IMG/VR virus record: IMGVR_UViG_3300047292_000147
Span: 6,378-70,377 of that record
From: a virus
Lineage: Duplodnaviria; Caudoviricetes
DNA: 64,000 nt
Direction: 5' to 3' (one strand)
A model generated the notes under the pieces. That model worked only from the letters and a program-made list of their open reading frames with translations. It did no database searches and was not told the DNA's origin. Made by a program: the position numbers and the translations under genes. Below are positions 2,208 through 57,859 of the stretch, one piece after another. Position 1 is the stretch's first letter. Each line of letters opens with the position of its first letter.

Positions 2208-5200
2208 ATGGCTGAATTCGACCTCAATAGCTATTTCTCCAAGCGCCAACAACTGTTTGGGCAAGACAAGGTAGATGCTTTGCAGAAGGCTTCTGCAGAG
2301 AAAGTTCAAGCTCTCCAAGAAAGCCGAGCCCGAGATCAGGCTTACCTAAACAGCCCTCAAGCACAGATCGATCGAGCTGTTGCGGAAGGCCGTACCTGGG
2401 GCGAGTTTGGTCAAGACGTTGGTTTGTCTGCCATTCAAGGCGTTGATGCCTTGGCCAAGTTGCCGGCAATGGTTTACGACAAAGCCACGGAAGGAAACTT
2501 CTATGGCACGGAGACTCAGAGGATCAGTGCAATGTCCGATGAGCGTGAAAAGCTCAAGTCGGCATTTGCACAGGCCAACAACAAGCAGAAAGCCGATGCG
2601 GCCAAAGCTGCTGGTGAAGCGGCCAAAGAGTACTTTGGTGACGGTGCCCTTGGAACTGGTGCGCAGGTTGCTGCCGAGTTTGGTACTGCTTTCTGGGAAG
2701 CTGCCAAAGATCCAGGCAGCATTCCTGAGTTCTTGGCTCAACAAGCTGCTCAGCTGGGCGTCATGGGCAAGGTTGGCCGAGCATCGGAGCTCGCAGCTAA
2801 AGCTGCTGTCAAAGCAGCTCCAGTCCTTGCGGCTACCAAGGCTGGCCAGGCCGCAGTGAACCGTGTCGGTACGGCCGGTGCAGTAGGCACTGGTGCTGTG
2901 CTTCAGGGTACAGACGTTGGTTCGGACACCATGACTCGCCTTATGGAGCTTCCACAGGCAGTCTGGGATCAGAACCCTCAGTACAAAGTCCGAGCCGCTG
3001 AAATCGGTGCGGATGCTGCCAAGCAGGAGATTGCATCTCGTTTGGCTTCGGAAGCTACGGTGCAAGGTGCTGCAACTTCGTTGCTGTCCGCTGCCTTGCC
3101 TGGTGGTTCGTCTGTTGAGAAGGCCCTGGTCGGCAAGTCCCTGGGAGGCTTCAAAGCTGTTCCCAAAGCCTTTGTCGGAGAGTCGGGCCAGGAAGGTATC
3201 GAAGAGGGTACTGGCAAGTTCTTTGGCAATGCTGGGGTCAAGCAAATCGATCCAACCCAGTCACTGTCCGAGGATGTGGGTGCTGCAGCTGGCCAAGGCG
3301 CTTACATGGGTGGCTTGCTGGGTGCCGGCATCAGCGGTGTGCAGACTGCCGGAAACGCAGCTGCCATTGCTGCCGCTGAACGTGCGGCCAAGGTTCAGGA
3401 GGAAGTGGCCAAGAAGCAGGATCTGAGCGCTGCAATCGCCTCAGGTGATGTCTCGGCTTACCTGGATCCCAAGAGCCCTTCCTTTGCCCCCGAGAAGGCC
3501 GTGCAAGGACTGTTTGGCAACAGCCAAAAGGAAGACACCACACCGGAAGCCAAGCAGACCAACTTCGTCAAAGCCGAATCGATCGTTGCTGACCTCAAGA
3601 GCGAACGAGAGAAGCTTCAGCTTGAGCTTGATTGGACCAATCCAGACAAGCTTCAGGCGCGTCTTGATGCTGGCAGGGACGGCTTTAGTCCTGAGCTTAT
3701 TGCAGCGACAGAAGAAACCATTGCAACGCTTCGTACTACCCCTGCTGATCCGAATGAGATTGCAGCGCTTGAAGCCAAAGCAAAAAGCATGGATCGAAAG
3801 ATCCAGCTGTCCGAAACCATTCTCAAAGACTTCAACAGGGAAGGCCAAAACCAGCAAGTTGATGTTGAGGCTGAAGTAGCCAAGCTGAAGGACGCTGATC
3901 CTGTGGTGTCACAGGGTGCGGCCGACAACATCATCAACCTGTCCATGAAGTCTCCAGAGCTCGTGGATCGGAAGTTGGCTGCATCACTGGTCAACGACAC
4001 CACGAACAACCTGACGGACTCTCAGCGGGATTACCTGCGTGCGTTCTCCGAGGCTCGAGTTGCTGAAAACACCCTGAAGACCATGGGTGACGTTTCCAAA
4101 GAGATCTTCTTTGGATCGGCCAAAGACAAGCAGGGAATCAAGTACACCGGTCTGGCCGAGTACCGAGCCAATGTAGCTGTGACGCTGGCTGCTGGAAACC
4201 AGAAGTCTGCTGACCGTGAACTGGCTTTGCTGACCAATTTTGAAACCAGCCATCAAGCCAAAGCAAAAGCTGCTTCTGAGGCCTATGCCGCATTCCTGAA
4301 AGATGGAATCGAACGTCGTGTCGTCAGAAACAAAGACGGCAGTTGGAAAGTTGAACAGGGTTTGTTTGAAAGCCCTGCTGCTCGTGTTGAAAACGGTGGC
4401 TTGGATATTAAGGAGAATTCTCCAAAGATCGTCGCTGAAACCAAAACAGAAGCAGATGCAATTTCCAAGACTGCTGTCGAATTGAAGGCTGCTTATGCAG
4501 TAAAGTTTGGTTCAGGTAATACCGGTGGAGCCAGTAATGTCCAGAACGTACCGCAAGCACTCGAAGGAATTCAAAGCGCCGAAACGCAGCTTCGACCCGA
4601 AGCCTCGACGCAAGATGGAGCCGCTGAGGGAGTTGCGACTACCGGAGGAGGAGCCGCTGCCGACGTTCAGGCCGATGCAACAGCTGGAACTGATGCTGTA
4701 GCTCCTGCAAGCAAAAAAACAAACAGCCTTGAATTTGCTCGTTCTCTTGACAAGCAACTAAGTGACAGGCTTACACCAATTAGTCGCGCTCAGAAAGATG
4801 GAAAGATCTCACTGGAAGACGCTCGTGCACGTTTTCAAGAAGAAAAAACAAAGCTCATTGCTGAGAATGCTGAAGCTTTGGTGGCTGCTGCTTTTGAAGG
4901 GATCGCCCCTCGCACGTTGGCTGTTGCTAAGTCGTTTGCCAAAGATGGAAATGCTGCAATGGCTGCAGCACAAGCCCTTGGAGAGGTAGGAATCGCTTCT
5001 AGGCTGTACCCAGAAAACGATGCCTTGGTGCAACAGCTTGTGCTTGCTCGCTTGGCTCAGGAAACCCCGGCCGCTGCTCCAACAACTCAGGAGGCTCCGT
5101 CCTCTGCTGCGAGCACTGTAAAAGCTAAGACAGATCAAGCTCAACTGCAGTCTACTGAGCAGGCTACCACTTCGACTGAAGCGGTCGTTCCGGTTCCTGA

Positions 5201-52349: not shown

Positions 52350-53594
52350 TCAGCAGAGTCCGTATGCAGACTCCCTGATCTTGTCACCCAGGGTCTGGGA
52401 CAACTTCGGGAACATCCCTGGCTTGCCATGGAGTTGGCTCAAGATGTCGTCCAGAAGGTAGCTATCAGCCAGGTCAGCCAGGATCTCCTTGTACTGATAC
52501 CGAACCCAATTGATGTTGTTGGGGTGTGCTTTGAACTCGTCATGGATGGTGACGATCTCAAAGGGTTGGTACTGGAGCATGCCGTTGATGATCTTGGCCA
52601 AGTGCTCGAGGTGCTCTTGGCTCAGCTTCTGCAGGTTCTCTGGGGTCAGATGAGGCATGATCACGACATCCGGGACAGTACTTCTCTCGTACTGCTGGAC
52701 GTAGTAGCCGGCCTTGCCATAGGGCATAGAGACTTCTCTCTTGGCTCCCATGATGCGTTCCAGCATCTCGATCTCAATCCATGCTGCTGCTTGTTCTGCG
52801 ATCTCCCGATCGTAGTTGCAGCGACGGTGCATGCTCCTCAGCACGTAAGCATCGACACTGTGAGTGACGTTGGCTGCATTGCTGAGCCCTGACTTCGAGC
52901 CCTGGTTCTCGTAGAACTCGTAGCTGAAGGTGGCATGGTTTAGCTCATCGACCTCGATGCGTGCCTCGACCTTCTTCATGACCTTTATGCGAGCATCGAA
53001 GCCGTCAGGCATCACCCAGGCATGCTGCAAGGCATAGGGTTGCCAGCTGGCCAACAAGTCTTGCAGCAGCTCCCATGCACCTGGTGCGATGATTTGAGCA
53101 GCCTCGTAGAACGCAGCCAGCTCAGGAGTCTCGTCACCGAAGAGGTTCTTTGGCTCGGCCTTGGAACCGTAGAAACTGGTCATCAGGGCTTGCTTGGCAT
53201 CCTTGCGGTCTACGACCAGGTTGCCACCCAAGATGCCGTTCATCACCTCTGTGCAGGTGGTATAGGCATCGGCTCGAACATTGGGGTCAACCAAGCCTGT
53301 AGCCGTGGCACCAGCTTCGCAGCCAGTCAGGACAGACATCATCTGAATGCCTGAGCAGGTGCCATCCACACCAACCAGATGGCCAGTAGGAATGCCTTGC
53401 TGTGCTTTGCGGATGGCTTGAACAGCCTTGATGTACAGAGGCTTGGTTTCTGCCAGTGAAGCAAGGTGCTCCAGATCAAGCATGTGACAGTCGGTCCAGT
53501 GAATACGTTCTTCGAACGTCACCTTGTCCATACCGTACTGGGTAGCAGCATCAATGAGAAGCCACTGATACCCGGTGTAATGATTCATTGCCAT
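52350..53594 (-). CDS. N4 RNA polymerase II subunit 2 (gp16-like)
   Basis: WLLIDAATQYGMDK, VGVDGTCSGIQ, RKDAKQALMTSFYGS, IHDEF. Confidence 0.9.
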   Translation of the reverse strand: MAMNHYTGYQWLLIDAATQYGMDKVTFEERIHWTDCHMLDLEHLASLAETKPLYIKAVQAIRKAQQGIPTGHLVGVDGTCSGIQMMSVLTGCEAGATATGLVDPNVRADAYTTCTEVMNGILGGNLVVDRKDAKQALMTSFYGSKAEPKNLFGDETPELAAFYEAAQIIAPGAWELLQDLLASWQPYALQHAWVMPDGFDARIKVMKKVEARIEVDELNHATFSYEFYENQGSKSGLSNAANVTHSVDAYVLRSMHRRCNYDREIAEQAAAWIEIEMLERIMGAKREVSMPYGKAGYYVQQYERSTVPDVVIMPHLTPENLQKLSQEHLEHLAKIINGMLQYQPFEIVTIHDEFKAHPNNINWVRYQYKEILADLADSYLLDDILSQLHGKPGMFPKLSQTLGDKIRESAYGLC

Positions 53595-53841: not shown

Positions 53842-54053
53842 GGGACATCCAGTACCAGCAGATGAGCCCTGAATGCAGTGGGGAACTTGTTCAAAGACAA
53901 GTCTTTGAGCATGCCTCCTGCGATCATCCCGAAGTCTGGTGAGTTGCAATCTTCACCAAGATCAAGGCAGTAGTAGCCTTGGTATTTGGAGAAGTCGATC
54001 TCGTTGGCTTCCACGAAGGTGCCCATTCGATACAGGTAGTACCGTGATTTCAT
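53838..54053 (-). CDS. Small hypothetical protein
   Basis: Ends FPTAFRAHLLVLDVP; overlap-coupled to RNAP1. Confidence 0.55.
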   Translation of the reverse strand: MKSRYYLYRMGTFVEANEIDFSKYQGYYCLDLGEDCNSPDFGMIAGGMLKDLSLNKFPTAFRAHLLVLDVP

Positions 54054-54955
54054 GGGACACCTGTGACAAGTTCTTCGTTGGCCAGCTCGATCTGGGCTTT
54101 CTTGAAGGCAGTGCCCTGAGTGGTGATGTGATAGCCCATGGCATAGATCCGGCCACGTTTATCCACCTTGTGAGTGAGATAGAACTTGTTGCCTTGCTGT
54201 GCCATGAGGCTGTAGAACTCATAGCTCTGCCGCTTGAAGGCATTCCACTGATCGGTCTGATCCTGGTCTTTGAGCTCGAAAGTAGGATCTTCTTCAACAG
54301 TGCTGAGGAAATCTGTATCGAGCTTCAATGCTACCTTGTTCATCAGGTTCAGGACATCTAGGCAGATGTCTCCGTCATGATGGTTGCCGGTGCCAAGGAT
54401 CAAAGAATCATTGTGAGTCAGGTAGCCTGAGCTGTAGTTGTGGGTTAACTCCAGTGGTTCACACACCATGGGTGGCAGGTACTGAGAGTTCTCGATGAAG
54501 CTGATGAGGATCTCAGGAAGAGGTATTCGAGAAACCACCATCAGACTGGCCATCTTGTCCTCTTTGCTGATGTCGAAGGCATCGGTCAAGCAGAGCACTG
54601 CCAGTAACTCAGCCACCGTGGTGATGGCTTCTGTCCTGTCAGAGAACTGCAGTCGTGATGCAACCTGTGCTGATACTGAGGTAAACAGTTCAGGCTTCTG
54701 CGAGTAGGCAATACCCACAAAGATGTCCATGACCAAGGCCTGAACATCCAGGTTCTCCAGCTGGGCAATCCTTTTCATCTTGGATTCGTAGTACTGGCCA
54801 GCCTTGTACTTCTCGACCAGCTCGACACCATGCTTGAGCTTGGCTTGCATCTCAGGATGATCTTTTATAGCTGTCCTGATCTTGGCGTCAATGTGCTTGC
54901 GGTTGTATCTCTGTTCGTTCATTTCCTGGAGAACGATCTGTCTCATGGTTTCCAT
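54050..54955 (-). CDS. N4 RNA polymerase II subunit 1 (gp15-like)
   Basis: YLPPMVCEP, FYLTHKVDKRGRIY..GYHITTQGT.FKKA; GGAG Shine-Dalgarno before the ATG at 54955. Confidence 0.9.
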   Translation of the reverse strand: METMRQIVLQEMNEQRYNRKHIDAKIRTAIKDHPEMQAKLKHGVELVEKYKAGQYYESKMKRIAQLENLDVQALVMDIFVGIAYSQKPELFTSVSAQVASRLQFSDRTEAITTVAELLAVLCLTDAFDISKEDKMASLMVVSRIPLPEILISFIENSQYLPPMVCEPLELTHNYSSGYLTHNDSLILGTGNHHDGDICLDVLNLMNKVALKLDTDFLSTVEEDPTFELKDQDQTDQWNAFKRQSYEFYSLMAQQGNKFYLTHKVDKRGRIYAMGYHITTQGTAFKKAQIELANEELVTGVP

Positions 54956-54987
54956 TGGTTTCTCCATGTCCTGGCAACAGCGCCAGC

Positions 54988-55002
54988 CCATGGCCGGAGG
55001 CC
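54988..55002 (-). promoter_or_regulatory. Candidate vRNAP hairpin promoter upstream of RNAP1
   Basis: Template (+) strand CCAT-GGCC-GGA-GGCC. Confidence 0.6.
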
Positions 55003-55043
55003 GAGACCTGAGGGATGACTGTCTTTGCTGCGGTCTACGTGTG

Positions 55044-55080
55044 AAAAAAACAACCACCACTCCCGAAGGAGCAGTGGTTT
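55044..55080 (-). terminator. UUCG-loop terminator
   Basis: ACCACTGCTCC-TTCG-GGAGTGGTGGT followed by a T run on the minus strand. Confidence 0.75.
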
Positions 55081-55089
55081 TGGAGCGGA

Positions 55090-55362
55090 TCACTCCAGGG
55101 CGAAGCCCGAGGTATCAGCAGGAAGGGCCGACTGGTACTCGATCTCCAGCTTGGCAAGGATCTGAGCAGCGCGGCTCGGATCTTCGTTCAGCCAGGCGAG
55201 CAGTGCCTTCTCGTTGCCTTTGCTCTCTTTGAGAGGGATAGCACCGAGCTTCTTACGGCCGCCGTTCTTGGCAGGCAGGTAGAAGTTGAGGAAGCCCTGA
55301 GCCTTCCAGTTCTCGTTGGAAGGGGTAGCAGCAGCGTTGGTAACAGCGTTTTGAAAGGCCAT
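55090..55362 (-). CDS. Early protein, possible distant N4 gp2-like ssDNA-binding RNAP II activator
   Basis: KAQGFLNF..LGAIPL resembles the N4 gp2 motif as I recall it; early-region position upstream of RNAP1; GGAG Shine-Dalgarno. Confidence 0.45.
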   Translation of the reverse strand: MAFQNAVTNAAATPSNENWKAQGFLNFYLPAKNGGRKKLGAIPLKESKGNEKALLAWLNEDPSRAAQILAKLEIEYQSALPADTSGFALE

Positions 55363-55406
55363 GAGAGTTCTCCAGAGAGGATTGATTGACGGCAGGATTT
55401 GCCAGT

Positions 55407-55422
55407 CCATGGGCGAAGCCCA
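55407..55422 (-). promoter_or_regulatory. Candidate vRNAP hairpin promoter upstream of the gp2-like gene
   Basis: Template strand CCAT-GGGC-GAA-GCCC-A. Confidence 0.65.
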
Positions 55423-55546
55423 AGGAGCAGAGACGTAGGGGAGAAGTGCTACGGTCACTCGTCCAAGGGGAAGGTGACGCTACAGCAAAGCTTGGAAGTT
55501 GTGACAGAAAAGTGAAGACAGCTTTGTCGGTGGTAGTTCGTAAGAG

Positions 55547-55678
55547 TCAGCGTAGGTATGCCAGCACCAAGGCAGTGCTGATTGCCAAAGCAATGCACAC
55601 GACAACGATGACGATGCCATCCCAGTCTGTGGGTTGAGGATCGGTGCCAAAGGTCTGTTGGTACTTGTGATGTTTCAT
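55547..55678 (-). CDS. 43-aa early membrane peptide (MKHHKYQQTFGTDPQPTDWDGIVIVVVCIALAISTALVLAYLR)
   Basis: Read manually; AAGGA Shine-Dalgarno. Confidence 0.5.
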   Translation of the reverse strand: MKHHKYQQTFGTDPQPTDWDGIVIVVVCIALAISTALVLAYLR

Positions 55679-55687
55679 GTTGGTTCC

Positions 55688-55906
55688 TTAGGTTTGGGCA
55701 TGGACATGCCAATGAGTTTGGTTGAAATGCGATACAGGGTAGAAGACCGCACGAAGGCCATGAGCAATGAGAGCAGAGGTTGCAATGAGCGCAGCGTCAT
55801 GGTCATAGGCCTTGTAAGTAATCTGTAAGGGAGTTGCTTCGAGCACCTTGTCGATGTGATCTTCAAGGTAGTACTGGATGTGAAGAGGTGGATGGATCGA
55901 GGCCAT
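55688..55906 (-). CDS. Early hypothetical protein
   Basis: AGGAG Shine-Dalgarno. Confidence 0.55.
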   Translation of the reverse strand: MASIHPPLHIQYYLEDHIDKVLEATPLQITYKAYDHDAALIATSALIAHGLRAVFYPVSHFNQTHWHVHAQT

Positions 55907-55911
55907 GGTGA

Positions 55912-56067
55912 TTACTCCTGGTTTGGTTGAGAGATGCCATCAAGGCGGACGTATTCCGCAATGACAGTGGAAGGCACTAGCCGCAGCAAAGAAGCAGCAG
56001 CCAGTGGCGTGATGCCAGCGCGATAGCACTGGTAGATGTTGGACATTTGAAAGGGAGAAGGTTTCAT
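55912..56067 (-). CDS. Early small HTH-like protein (51 aa)
   Basis: GGAG Shine-Dalgarno before MKPSPF; GITPLAAASLLRLVPSTVIAEY pattern. Confidence 0.5.
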   Translation of the reverse strand: MKPSPFQMSNIYQCYRAGITPLAAASLLRLVPSTVIAEYVRLDGISQPNQE

Positions 56068-56107
56068 AGAAGTCTCCAAGTGAGATGGGACATCCATCTC
56101 TTCCACC

Positions 56108-56122
56108 CCATGAGCGAAGCTC
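56108..56122 (-). promoter_or_regulatory. Candidate vRNAP hairpin promoter
   Basis: Template strand CCAT-GAGC-GAA-GCTC. Confidence 0.65.
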
Positions 56123-56300
56123 GATATATAGGGTAAATATCGGAATGGGTAGTGACATGTATGGAGGTAATGGAGTGGAGACTATTAGTGATCTGTTACT
56201 TTTCTCCACCTAATCACCATTATCCTAATCATCAACAGTGCGAGGAGCGCACCTCTTTCTATCTAAGGACTGACTATCTCCATGTGTAATGTGTTTGTGT

Positions 56301-56332
56301 AAAGACCTAAGCTCCCCGAAGGGAGCCTAGGT
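56301..56332 (-). terminator. UUCG-loop terminator after the first early gene
   Basis: ACCTAGGCTCCC-TTCG-GGGAGCTTAGGT followed by CTTT on the minus strand. Confidence 0.7.
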
Positions 56333-56545
56333 TTAGTTGACAGCAGCGAGCTGCTTCTCGGTGACACGTTGCTCTTTGAGCATGAGGTTCATGCCAGCTT
56401 GACGCTTGATGCGAGCCTCATCGGCCATAGCACCAGCACCTTCCTCTGCCCAGGTAGCGAGGTGGACACCAGCATTACCGATCTTCTCAGCAGCGATGAA
56501 GTAAGCGGTGAGCATGGCAAAGAAACGAGTAAACATCGTGATCAT
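56333..56545 (-). CDS. First early gene, small protein
   Basis: AAGGAG Shine-Dalgarno; terminator immediately after. Confidence 0.6.
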   Translation of the reverse strand: MITMFTRFFAMLTAYFIAAEKIGNAGVHLATWAEEGAGAMADEARIKRQAGMNLMLKEQRVTEKQLAAVN

Positions 56546-56797
56546 GGGAAACTCCTTAAGGGTTGAATGAACGGATGGCGATCAACACATCCACCACACG
56601 CCCGAAGGGCAAGAGAGGATGGAACAACAGGTGGGGTAGAGTAGGCAGGGAAACGGTGGAACAAGAGATGGGGGGGGGGGGATACTTGAGACGATCGAGC
56701 TGGGAGTGATAGTCCTGAGTTCATACCCCTCTGCAAAAATTCCCAAAACCCCACTGCTTATTTTTTAAGCAGCATTTCCGCTATACTCCGATCCCAT

Positions 56798-56872
56798 TGG
56801 CATATAGCTCAGCGGTAGAGCAGTCGGCTGTTAACCGACCGGTCTGTGGTTCGATCCCACATTTGCCAGCCA
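56798..56872 (+). tRNA. tRNA-Asn (GTT)
   Basis: Cloverleaf: TGGCATA acceptor (one T-T mismatch), GTCGG-CTGTTAA-CCGAC anticodon arm, GGTTCGATCC T-loop, encoded CCA. Confidence 0.9.
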
Positions 56873-56877
56873 GATTT

Positions 56878-56962
56878 GGATGCGTAGACCCGTAAGGAGC
56901 GGGGGTTGCCTGTAAAGCAGCTGTCTATGGCCCACTAGGTTCGATACCTAGAGCATCCACCA
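56878..56962 (+). tRNA. tRNA-Tyr (GTA)
   Basis: GGATGCG acceptor, GTTGC-CTGTAAA-GCAGC anticodon arm, long variable arm, GGTTCGATAC T-loop, encoded CCA. Confidence 0.85.
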
Positions 56963-57086
56963 ATTCCCCAGTAAATATGAAGGGATTGGTTTCTCCATAA
57001 AATGCGGCTTGTCCGCTCCCCCCACCCCCGGTTCCCATGGCTTCGCCCCTTTATATATAAGGGTTCGACTCTTGTAAGTTTTATGT

Positions 57087-57112
57087 AAGGCTCCTTTATA
57101 GGGGCCTTTTTT
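57087..57112 (+). terminator. Terminator after the tRNAs
   Basis: AAGGCTCCT-TTAT-AGGGGCCTT followed by a T run. Confidence 0.7.
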
Positions 57113-57163
57113 ATTTGGTTCTACTATACTCAGCCTATAAGCTAACCATGAGGAAGCCAAAAG

Positions 57164-57859
57164 ATGAGTGCTTTGACTATTGACCAGTTCAAACAGGCTC
57201 TCCCTGAGAAGGTGAAGAAGAGCATCAACCAAGAGTTGATTGACCAGATCAATACGACTCTCTCTGATCCCGAGATGTTTGAGAGCTATCGGGAGAACCT
57301 GCTGAGCTACACCAAGGTGATGGCTGATGGCCGGTTCAAGGTGGATTCGTATATCCAGGCCGTGAAGTACGTGAGCCACAAGCTGATGGGCTGCACGAAT
57401 ATCGAGGCTTACACGAAGACGTTCCCGGATAAGTACGCCCGGTTTGTGGCTCAGGGTGTTCAAGCCAAGGACATTGCCAGCTATGTGACGGCGTACAACA
57501 AGAGCAAGCTGGTGAACCTGATCTTCGAGCAGACGCTGATTCCCAGCTATGTGCTGAACCAGGATCTGTATCAGAGGGCCTTGAATGTGCAGGCCGATCT
57601 GATGGTGAACAGTGGTTCAGACAAGGTGCGGTGTGATGCGGCGAATAGTCTGCTGACGCACTTGAAGATGCCCGAGACCCAGAAGGTGGAGCTCGAGATC
57701 GGGGTCAAAGAGGATTCCAGCATTGGTGCTTTGAGGCAGGCAACTTTGGAGTTGGCTCGTGCGCAGAGGCTTGCCATGGAAGCTGGACAGATGAGCGCAC
57801 AGGAGGTGGCTCACGCCAAGATCGTCATTGATGTCGATGCCACGGAGGTGAATCCATGA
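57164..57859 (+). CDS. N4 gp69-like protein
   Basis: Upstream of the terminase as in N4; AVKYVSHKLMG...AYNKSKLV pattern. Confidence 0.7.
   Translation: MSALTIDQFKQALPEKVKKSINQELIDQINTTLSDPEMFESYRENLLSYTKVMADGRFKVDSYIQAVKYVSHKLMGCTNIEAYTKTFPDKYARFVAQGVQAKDIASYVTAYNKSKLVNLIFEQTLIPSYVLNQDLYQRALNVQADLMVNSGSDKVRCDAANSLLTHLKMPETQKVELEIGVKEDSSIGALRQATLELARAQRLAMEAGQMSAQEVAHAKIVIDVDATEVNP

Follow-up and report, generated by a model that had tools for sequence, protein, structure and literature searches.

We report here four small hairpins on the template strand of the early region of an uncultured N4-like phage, and propose, on the strength of their sequence, arrangement and conservation, that they are very probably the early promoters of this phage, four in number, and that all four are presumably read by its 3588-aa virion RNA polymerase (vRNAP). 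Provided that they are promoters, transcription probably starts at a distal TGG, at the positions listed in Table 1. The resulting loop-to-start distance is most likely 2 nt longer than that of N4 and matches the distance already described for LUZ7. The hairpin promoter type itself is known; to this we add a fourth promoter, a correction of the start-site geometry and a consensus that spans the clade.

Four hairpins on the template strand of the early region

The window analysed in this study is a stretch of 64 kb, corresponding to positions 6378-70377 of a 70,377-bp genome which was recovered from a freshwater metagenome and belongs to an uncultured phage. As judged from the proteins it encodes, a 3588-aa virion RNA polymerase together with RNAP1 and RNAP2, the phage is N4-like. 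A DNA search of the collected phage records gave no close relative; RNAP1 of LUZ7-like and PEV2-like Pseudomonas phages matched best, at ~70%.

Table 1. Polymerase genes, early genes, putative promoters and terminators (positions are those of the 64-kb window)
Feature	Position	Strand	Remarks
Virion RNA polymerase, 3588 aa	2208..12974	+	phrog_2206, 1666.7 bits; N4 vRNAP structures, E 1.6e-48
RNAP2, large subunit of RNAPII	52350..53594	-	phrog_2051, E 1.3e-144
RNAP1, small subunit of N4-type RNAPII	54050..54955	-	phrog_2166, E 1.4e-103
P4 (first hairpin of the initial annotation)	54984..55002	-	template hairpin GGCC-GGA-GGCC, 54992-55002; predicted start G 54984, 29 nt before RNAP1 ATG 54955
T2, intrinsic terminator	55042..55079	-	strong; 55079-55052 plus T7 run; 12-bp stem, TTCG loop
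Drc-like gene, 90 aa, 3' of P3	55090..55362	-	remote phrog_6271 member, E 1.2e-7
P3 (second hairpin of the initial annotation)	55403..55421	-	template hairpin (T)GGGC-GAA-GCCC(A), 55411-55421; predicted start G 55403
Three small early ORFs (51, 72, 43 aa), 3' of P2	55547..56067	-	without family match
P2 (third hairpin of the initial annotation)	56104..56122	-	template hairpin GAGC-GAA-GCTC, 56112-56122; predicted start G 56104, 37 nt before ATG 56067
T1, probable terminator, 3' of first early gene	56306..56331	-	11-bp stem, one G.T pair, TTCG loop, weak T tail
First early gene, 70 aa	56333..56545	-	phrog_6483; AAGGAG-N7-ATG(56545)
P1	56592..56610	-	template hairpin GCCC-GAA-GGGC, 56600-56610; CCAT-free; predicted start G 56592, 47 nt before ATG 56545

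The local genes lie on the - strand, hence the + strand is the template. All four hairpins are found on it, with predicted starts 29-47 nt before early ORFs including RNAP1, and the ATGs at 54955, 55362 and 56067 are each preceded by a GGAG-type ribosome-binding site. The stem consists of four Watson-Crick pairs in P1, P2 and P4, short of the 5-7 bp of the N4 type, and of five in P3, where a T:A pair makes up the fifth. Loop and closing pair read C-GAA-G three times and C-GGA-G once, so that the N4-type G-R-A loop with a 5'C:G3' closing pair is present in all four. Each also keeps an A at -1 and CC at the predicted start on the template. The base at the place of the N4 -8G, two bases 5' of the loop on the template, is G in P2 and P3 and C in P1 and P4. 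The mini-hairpin sequence GCGAAGC is contained in two of the four promoters.

The initial annotation had read three of these hairpins on the + strand as CCAT-GGCC-GGA-GGCC (54988-55002), CCAT-GGGC-GAA-GCCC (55407-55421) and CCAT-GAGC-GAA-GCTC (56108-56122), each 33-45 nt 5' of an early gene start. These readings are correct; the distance from CCAT to the ATG is 33 nt for 54955, 45 nt for 55362 and 41 nt for 56067. Its expectation that the motif is restricted to the early region was borne out, as a genome-wide scan of both strands for CCAT-N4-GRA-N4' gave exactly three matches, all of them on the template strand and inside a 1.1-kb segment of the early region. The promoter set, however, is not one of three, because P1 (coding strand GCCC-TTC-GGGC-gtgtgg-TGG), which is situated 5' of the first early gene in pyrimidine-rich, non-coding sequence, had been overlooked for want of a CCAT. 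CCAT had also been regarded as constant; it does precede the three hairpins named, but it is missing in P1, and its coding-strand counterpart ATGG follows only 16 of 132 unique related hairpins.

We compared these counts with chance expectation. The core CCAT-N4-GRA alone is not enriched (20 found, 15.8 expected), and complementary arms occur in only three of its instances. With the arms included, the three observed matches stand against a mean of 0.126 and a maximum of 2 in 500 first-order Markov simulations of the whole genome. A relaxed motif derived from the relatives (coding strand NNNC-TYC-GNNN with a perfect stem and GG seven bases after) was found four times in the genome, always on the - strand and between 54984 and 56610, as compared with a simulated mean of 0.31 and a maximum of 3 (500 runs). 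DNA nearest-neighbour folding of the hairpins gave -2.4 to -7.5 kcal/mol (z 0 to -3.4), and the P4 hairpin falls outside the minimum-energy fold in standard DNA folding. Folding of this standard kind does not set the hairpins apart, but its energies are uninformative rather than negative, because the stability of mini-hairpins is missed by conventional models (PMC13037366).

A fifth hairpin, GGGC-GAA-GCCC at 55098-55108, repeats the stem-loop of P3 within the last codons of the Drc-like gene, just 5' of T2, and is preceded by CCA instead of CCAT. It is probably a chance occurrence, having no TGG at the right distance and a mismatched arm (GCAC) in the relatives L002 and L003. We likewise rejected the idea that translation begins at the ATG which follows the stem; for P3 and P4 this ATG opens an in-frame reading, but for P2 it is out of frame, and it lacks a ribosome-binding site and is missing in many relatives. 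We also noticed a mirror-like cousin of the promoter motif on the - strand at 57035-57060, TATATATAAAGG-GGC-GAA-GCC-ATGG, which has its loop on the opposite strand, a 3-bp stem and a TATATAT flank like that of P2; it sits between the tRNA-Tyr gene and a terminator-like hairpin (see below) and has no CC at start distance in either direction.

Conservation in relatives and start-site geometry

Using RNAP1 as query we fetched 44 related loci (L002-L045; 34-96% identity) from IMG/VR. Perfect NNNC-TNC-GNNN hairpins were found in these 44 loci at 0.95/kb on the coding strand 5' of RNAP1, as against 0.14-0.19/kb on the other strand or downstream, which amounts to a 5-7 times enrichment of coding-strand hairpins upstream of RNAP1, and most relatives have four hairpins each. 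Four are also present in the closest relative, L002, whose RNAP1 protein is 96% identical; its first hairpin (1737) lies between the same aligned blocks as P1 and is thus syntenic with it, and its orthologue of P2, GCGC-TCC-GCGC-atggga-TGG, differs by a compensatory stem change. Relatives differ from one another by insertions immediately 5' of the P2 hairpin.

For covariation analysis, sequences were chosen only by their downstream leaders (GGCAAATCCTGCC, or GGCGCTnTTGCC and its close variants) and not by pairing; a hairpin-free tag match in L023 and its duplicate L024, probably due to chance, was left out. In the resulting alignment A1 of 27 sequences, 94.7% of the cells were paired, while slid controls reached at most 52.7%. 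Columns 9/17 and 10/16 carried 7 and 15 double-sided changes (GC, CG, AU), 22 in total, the covariation score was reached by no shuffle, and the closing pair was C:G in 25 of the 27 sequences. Stem pairing is thus upheld by compensatory change in related phages, as in promoters of the LUZ7 type. The 13-nt leader GGCAAATCCTGCC (55391-55403), which precedes the Drc-like gene, is invariant in 16 loci (among L002-L025, in A1) with RNAP1 identities of 65-96%, whereas the hairpin stem and spacer 5' of it are variable among the A1 loci, and conservation restarts exactly at the TGG.

We further counted bases at each position over 137 unique related hairpins, taking the stem start as 1 and the loop centre as 6. 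A at position 12 (85/137), T at 13 (95/137) and G at 14 (72/137) are followed by three positions, 15-17, of which none is conserved, and then by T at 18 (85/137), G at 19 (119/137; 13 nt past the loop centre) and G at 20 (91/137). All four promoters of the present phage have T-G-G at positions 18-20, so that, at the sequence level, the first G stands at 13 nt from the loop centre as in the LUZ7 type, and the conserved template CC lies at 13-14 nt. At 11 nt, where N4 has its +1C, the template base is G in P4 and P3 and C in P2 and P1, and the N4 position is therefore not kept in the set. In LUZ7 early starts have been mapped at a G 13-14 nt from the hairpin centre (PMC9163698). Since the G at 13 nt is conserved and CCAT is not family-wide, the distal TGG is the likely start. 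The earlier proposal of a CC-to-loop distance shorter than in N4 is thereby most likely reversed (13 nt against 11 nt in N4); it had taken the CC of CCAT as the start.

That earlier choice, a vRNAP promoter starting at the CC of CCAT (coding ATGG; 56109, 55408 and 54989), 8-9 nt from the loop centre, was weighed as an alternative. In three of the four promoters the stem runs straight into ATGG, which would itself provide a T-G-G with a template purine at -1, and an ATG is found after 46 of the 132 unique related hairpins. But P1 has GTGT after its stem and hence no GG there, and among the 132 hairpins GG occurs proximally in 25 and distally in 101, the distal one alone in 78 and the proximal one alone in only 2. 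The proximal GG is also missing from whole clades (L007-L012, L013-L016), orthologous leaders are conserved from the distal TGG onwards, and the mapped LUZ7 starts agree with the longer distance. We therefore regard a proximal start as unlikely and place the predicted starts at the distal TGG.

The central base of the loop is fixed per clade. On the coding strand most relatives have TCC or TTC, while TAC is found in L011, L013, L015, L016, L039 and L041-L043, as in LUZ7, and TGC in L023, L024, L032, L033 and L044. Because of these TAC and TGC clades, a purine-centred loop cannot be general in Schitoviridae. A 4-nt loop was noticed in L018 at the site orthologous to P3.

From its predicted +1 the leader GGCAAATCCTGCC can form a 4-bp stem-loop, and an RNA stem beginning at the predicted +1 was seen in three of the four leaders at non-significant z values of -0.26 to -1.64, which gives a weak hint of 5'-terminal RNA stem-loops. 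Contigs in four metatranscriptome runs all came from relatives that are 85-95% alike, and they carry no starts, ends or strand; depth was highest over the Drc-like gene in all four runs, though depth cannot rank genes.

Early transcription units

The early region would be transcribed as four units. In the first, P1 would drive the 70-aa gene up to T1; in the second, P2 the three small ORFs; in the third, P3 the Drc-like gene up to T2; and in the fourth, P4 would drive RNAP1, a small ORF and RNAP2. The T1 stem-loop was read directly from the sequence and was not picked up by a consensus terminator scan. T2, which is located between the Drc-like gene and P4, is kept in L002, L003 and L006. Between T1 and P2 there is an AT-rich, ORF-free spacer of ~180 nt (56123-56305). 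The Drc-like gene owes its name to LUZ7 gp14, or Drc, an ssDNA-binding cofactor of RNAPII (PMC7145618). LUZ7 gp14 matched phrog_6271 in a profile search (E 5e-37), a family it thus has in common with the 90-aa protein. This PHROG profile is the sole link between the two, as neither pairwise BLASTP nor PDB comparison gave a match of the 90-aa protein to Drc, and since pairwise BLASTP finds nothing the homology must be regarded as remote. In L002, L003 and L006 about 380 extra bases (L002:3622-3998), with room for one small gene, lie between the P4-type leader and RNAP1; this insert is missing in the present phage (54953-54957) and in L004 and L007.

The layout of genes and terminators also bears on whether the hairpins might act in RNA, as a processing site, an attenuator or a stabiliser of upstream transcripts, and not as DNA promoters. 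The inverted repeats would fold in a read-through transcript too, and three ORFs precede P3 with no terminator in between. There is, however, no - strand gene 5' of P1, and P2 and P4 come directly after terminators. The hairpins lack a T run and are followed by a TGG at fixed distance and a conserved leader, and the G-R-A loop with its C:G closing pair on the template DNA is the form of a DNA mini-hairpin (PMC13037366, PMC4496689). Considering further that experiments in N4 and LUZ7 have identified the same architecture as a promoter, a role in RNA appears very improbable. Still less credible are promoters for the phage RNAPII (middle promoters) or for the host RNA polymerase: LUZ7 middle promoters are hairpins as well, with stems of at least 6 bp ~15 nt 5' of the start (PMC9163698), but one of the present hairpins would drive the RNAPII genes themselves, the stems measure 4-5 bp, all four fall within the initial 1.6 kb of early sequence, and a sigma-70 consensus scan of 53900-57300 gave a single match, on the other strand.

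Beyond the early genes, 5' of P1, the sequence from 56612 to 56790 is non-coding and contains 12 consecutive C on the - strand (56670-56681) and, at about 56752-56772 upstream of P1, a palindrome, GCTGCTTA-aaaaa-TAAGCAG. A physical end of the genome may lie near 56612-56790, in which case the record would be circularly permuted; this possibility is raised because P1 of N4 and the first LUZ7 hairpin lie 91 and 81 nt, respectively, from the left end of their genomes. Some 190 nt past P1, genes for tRNA-Asn (GTT) and tRNA-Tyr (GTA) occupy 56798-56962 on the + strand, pointing away from the early genes, and the pair is followed by a terminator-like hairpin at 57087-57108.

Comparison with N4 and LUZ7 and the predicted mode of initiation

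The early promoters P1, P2 and P3 of N4 are read by its vRNAP, gp50 (PMC4496689; N4 promoter work by Glucksmann 1992, Davydova 2007 and Gleghorn 2008 as cited therein). When the same scan was applied to the N4 record, exactly three hairpins were found in its first 9 kb (91, 560 and 4549), before gp1, gp2 and RNAP1, which recovers the three N4 early promoters as the initial annotation had described them. In each of these hairpins the stem measures 5 bp and the spacer 4 nt, and the GG start lies at 11 nt from the loop centre, in agreement with the N4 numbering, in which the loop centre is -11 and the start is +1C (PMC4496689). In the LUZ7 record the scan gave hairpins at 81, 792, 3664 and 3696 with the GG 12-14 nt from the centre, those at 3664 and 3696 being the tandem pair before gp14 (Drc), whose GGs are 33 nt apart (PMC9163698).

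The present putative promoters are similar to those of N4 in having a template-strand hairpin with a G-R-A loop and a 5'C:G3' closing pair, a template CC preceded by A, and mini-hairpin cores (GCGAAGC here, GCGGAGC in N4 P2), and in standing before the first early genes and before RNAP1. They differ in dimensions, as N4 has a stem of 5 (up to 7) bp, a spacer of 4 nt and a start at 11 nt, and the present phage 4 (5) bp, 7 (6) nt and 13 nt; in number, there being three in N4 and four here; and in the -8G of N4, which is kept in only two of the four. With LUZ7, LIT1 and PEV2 they have in common a template-strand hairpin with a stem of at least 4 bp, a 3-nt loop and a C:G closing pair (PMC3715699, PMC9163698). 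LUZ7 is alike, further, in the GG start 13-14 nt from the loop centre (mapped in LUZ7, predicted here), in having more than three promoters per genome, in one unit that drives a phrog_6271 (Drc-family) gene, and in RNAP1 DNA that is ~70% identical. On the other hand, the template loop is G-T-A in three of the four LUZ7 hairpins and G-A-A or G-G-A here, as in N4, and the tandem pair before Drc in LUZ7 is replaced here by the single P3.

Hairpin promoters with a 4-5-bp stem and a 3-nt loop were predicted for LUZ7, LIT1 and PEV2 in 2010 (Ceyssens; PMC3715699), and those of LUZ7 were mapped in 2022 (Putzeys; PMC9163698). The 4-bp stem noted initially is accordingly not novel. As for the reading of the hairpins as vRNAP early promoters altogether, it holds with respect to position, strand, the C:G-closed G-R-A triloop, the covarying stems and a hairpin before RNAP1 like N4 P3, and had to be revised in the size of the set, CCAT and the start geometry.

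We propose the following course of early transcription. Negative supercoiling after injection would extrude a small template-strand hairpin, its stem 4-5 bp long and its G-R-A triloop closed by a 5'C:G3' pair, to which the injected 3588-aa vRNAP would bind. Initiation would then take place on the template CC (RNA 5'-GG), the first G probably lying 13 nt from the loop centre, with a template purine (A) at -1. In N4 the closing pair and the 5'G and 3'A of the loop are needed for extrusion and, by way of a sheared G:A pair, for hairpin stability. The N4 polymerase reads the central loop purine, -10G, -8G and +1C, and the initiating nucleotide is stacked upon by a purine at -1 of the template (PMC4496689). 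GCGAAGC is the most stable DNA mini-hairpin, with a Tm of 76.5 C (PMC13037366), and its presence in two of the promoters may account for a stem as short as 4 bp.

On the side of the enzyme, we aligned 28 vRNAP polymerase-domain segments, from this phage and its relatives, with N4 gp50 using MAFFT. Both catalytic Asp columns were invariant in the 29 rows, and an aromatic residue occupied the column of the N4 stacking residue W129 in 27 of 29, namely W in N4, Y1110 in the present phage and F in most; of the contact positions, only these columns align credibly. The N4 residues which read -8/-9/-10, D901, R904, K114 and R119, had no like residues aligned to them and are not recognisably conserved in the present phage, in a part of the alignment that is itself unreliable (3-6 identities in 29-45 positions). 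We tentatively suggest, with more doubt than confidence, that in this lineage, as in LUZ7, the ruler from loop to start measures 13 nt (11 nt in N4) and is combined with a minimal 4-bp mini-hairpin, and that the loop centre (template GGA/GAA, GTA or GCA) covaries with the aromatic vRNAP pocket. If this were true, natural enzyme-promoter pairs would constitute a readable specificity code, and the longer ruler would be explained.

The known account of how N4-like phages begin infection is unchanged by these observations. They provide an annotated early transcription programme, with four putative promoters, two terminators and predicted starts, for an uncultured freshwater N4-like phage, which may be of use in phage annotation and in the design of single-stranded-template transcription systems. 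Judging from the 132 unique hairpins which some 40 uncultured relatives carry, the LUZ7-type layout, with a 4-bp stem and a predicted start at 13 nt, appears to be the rule in this branch, and the central loop base shifts between clades while this layout stays.
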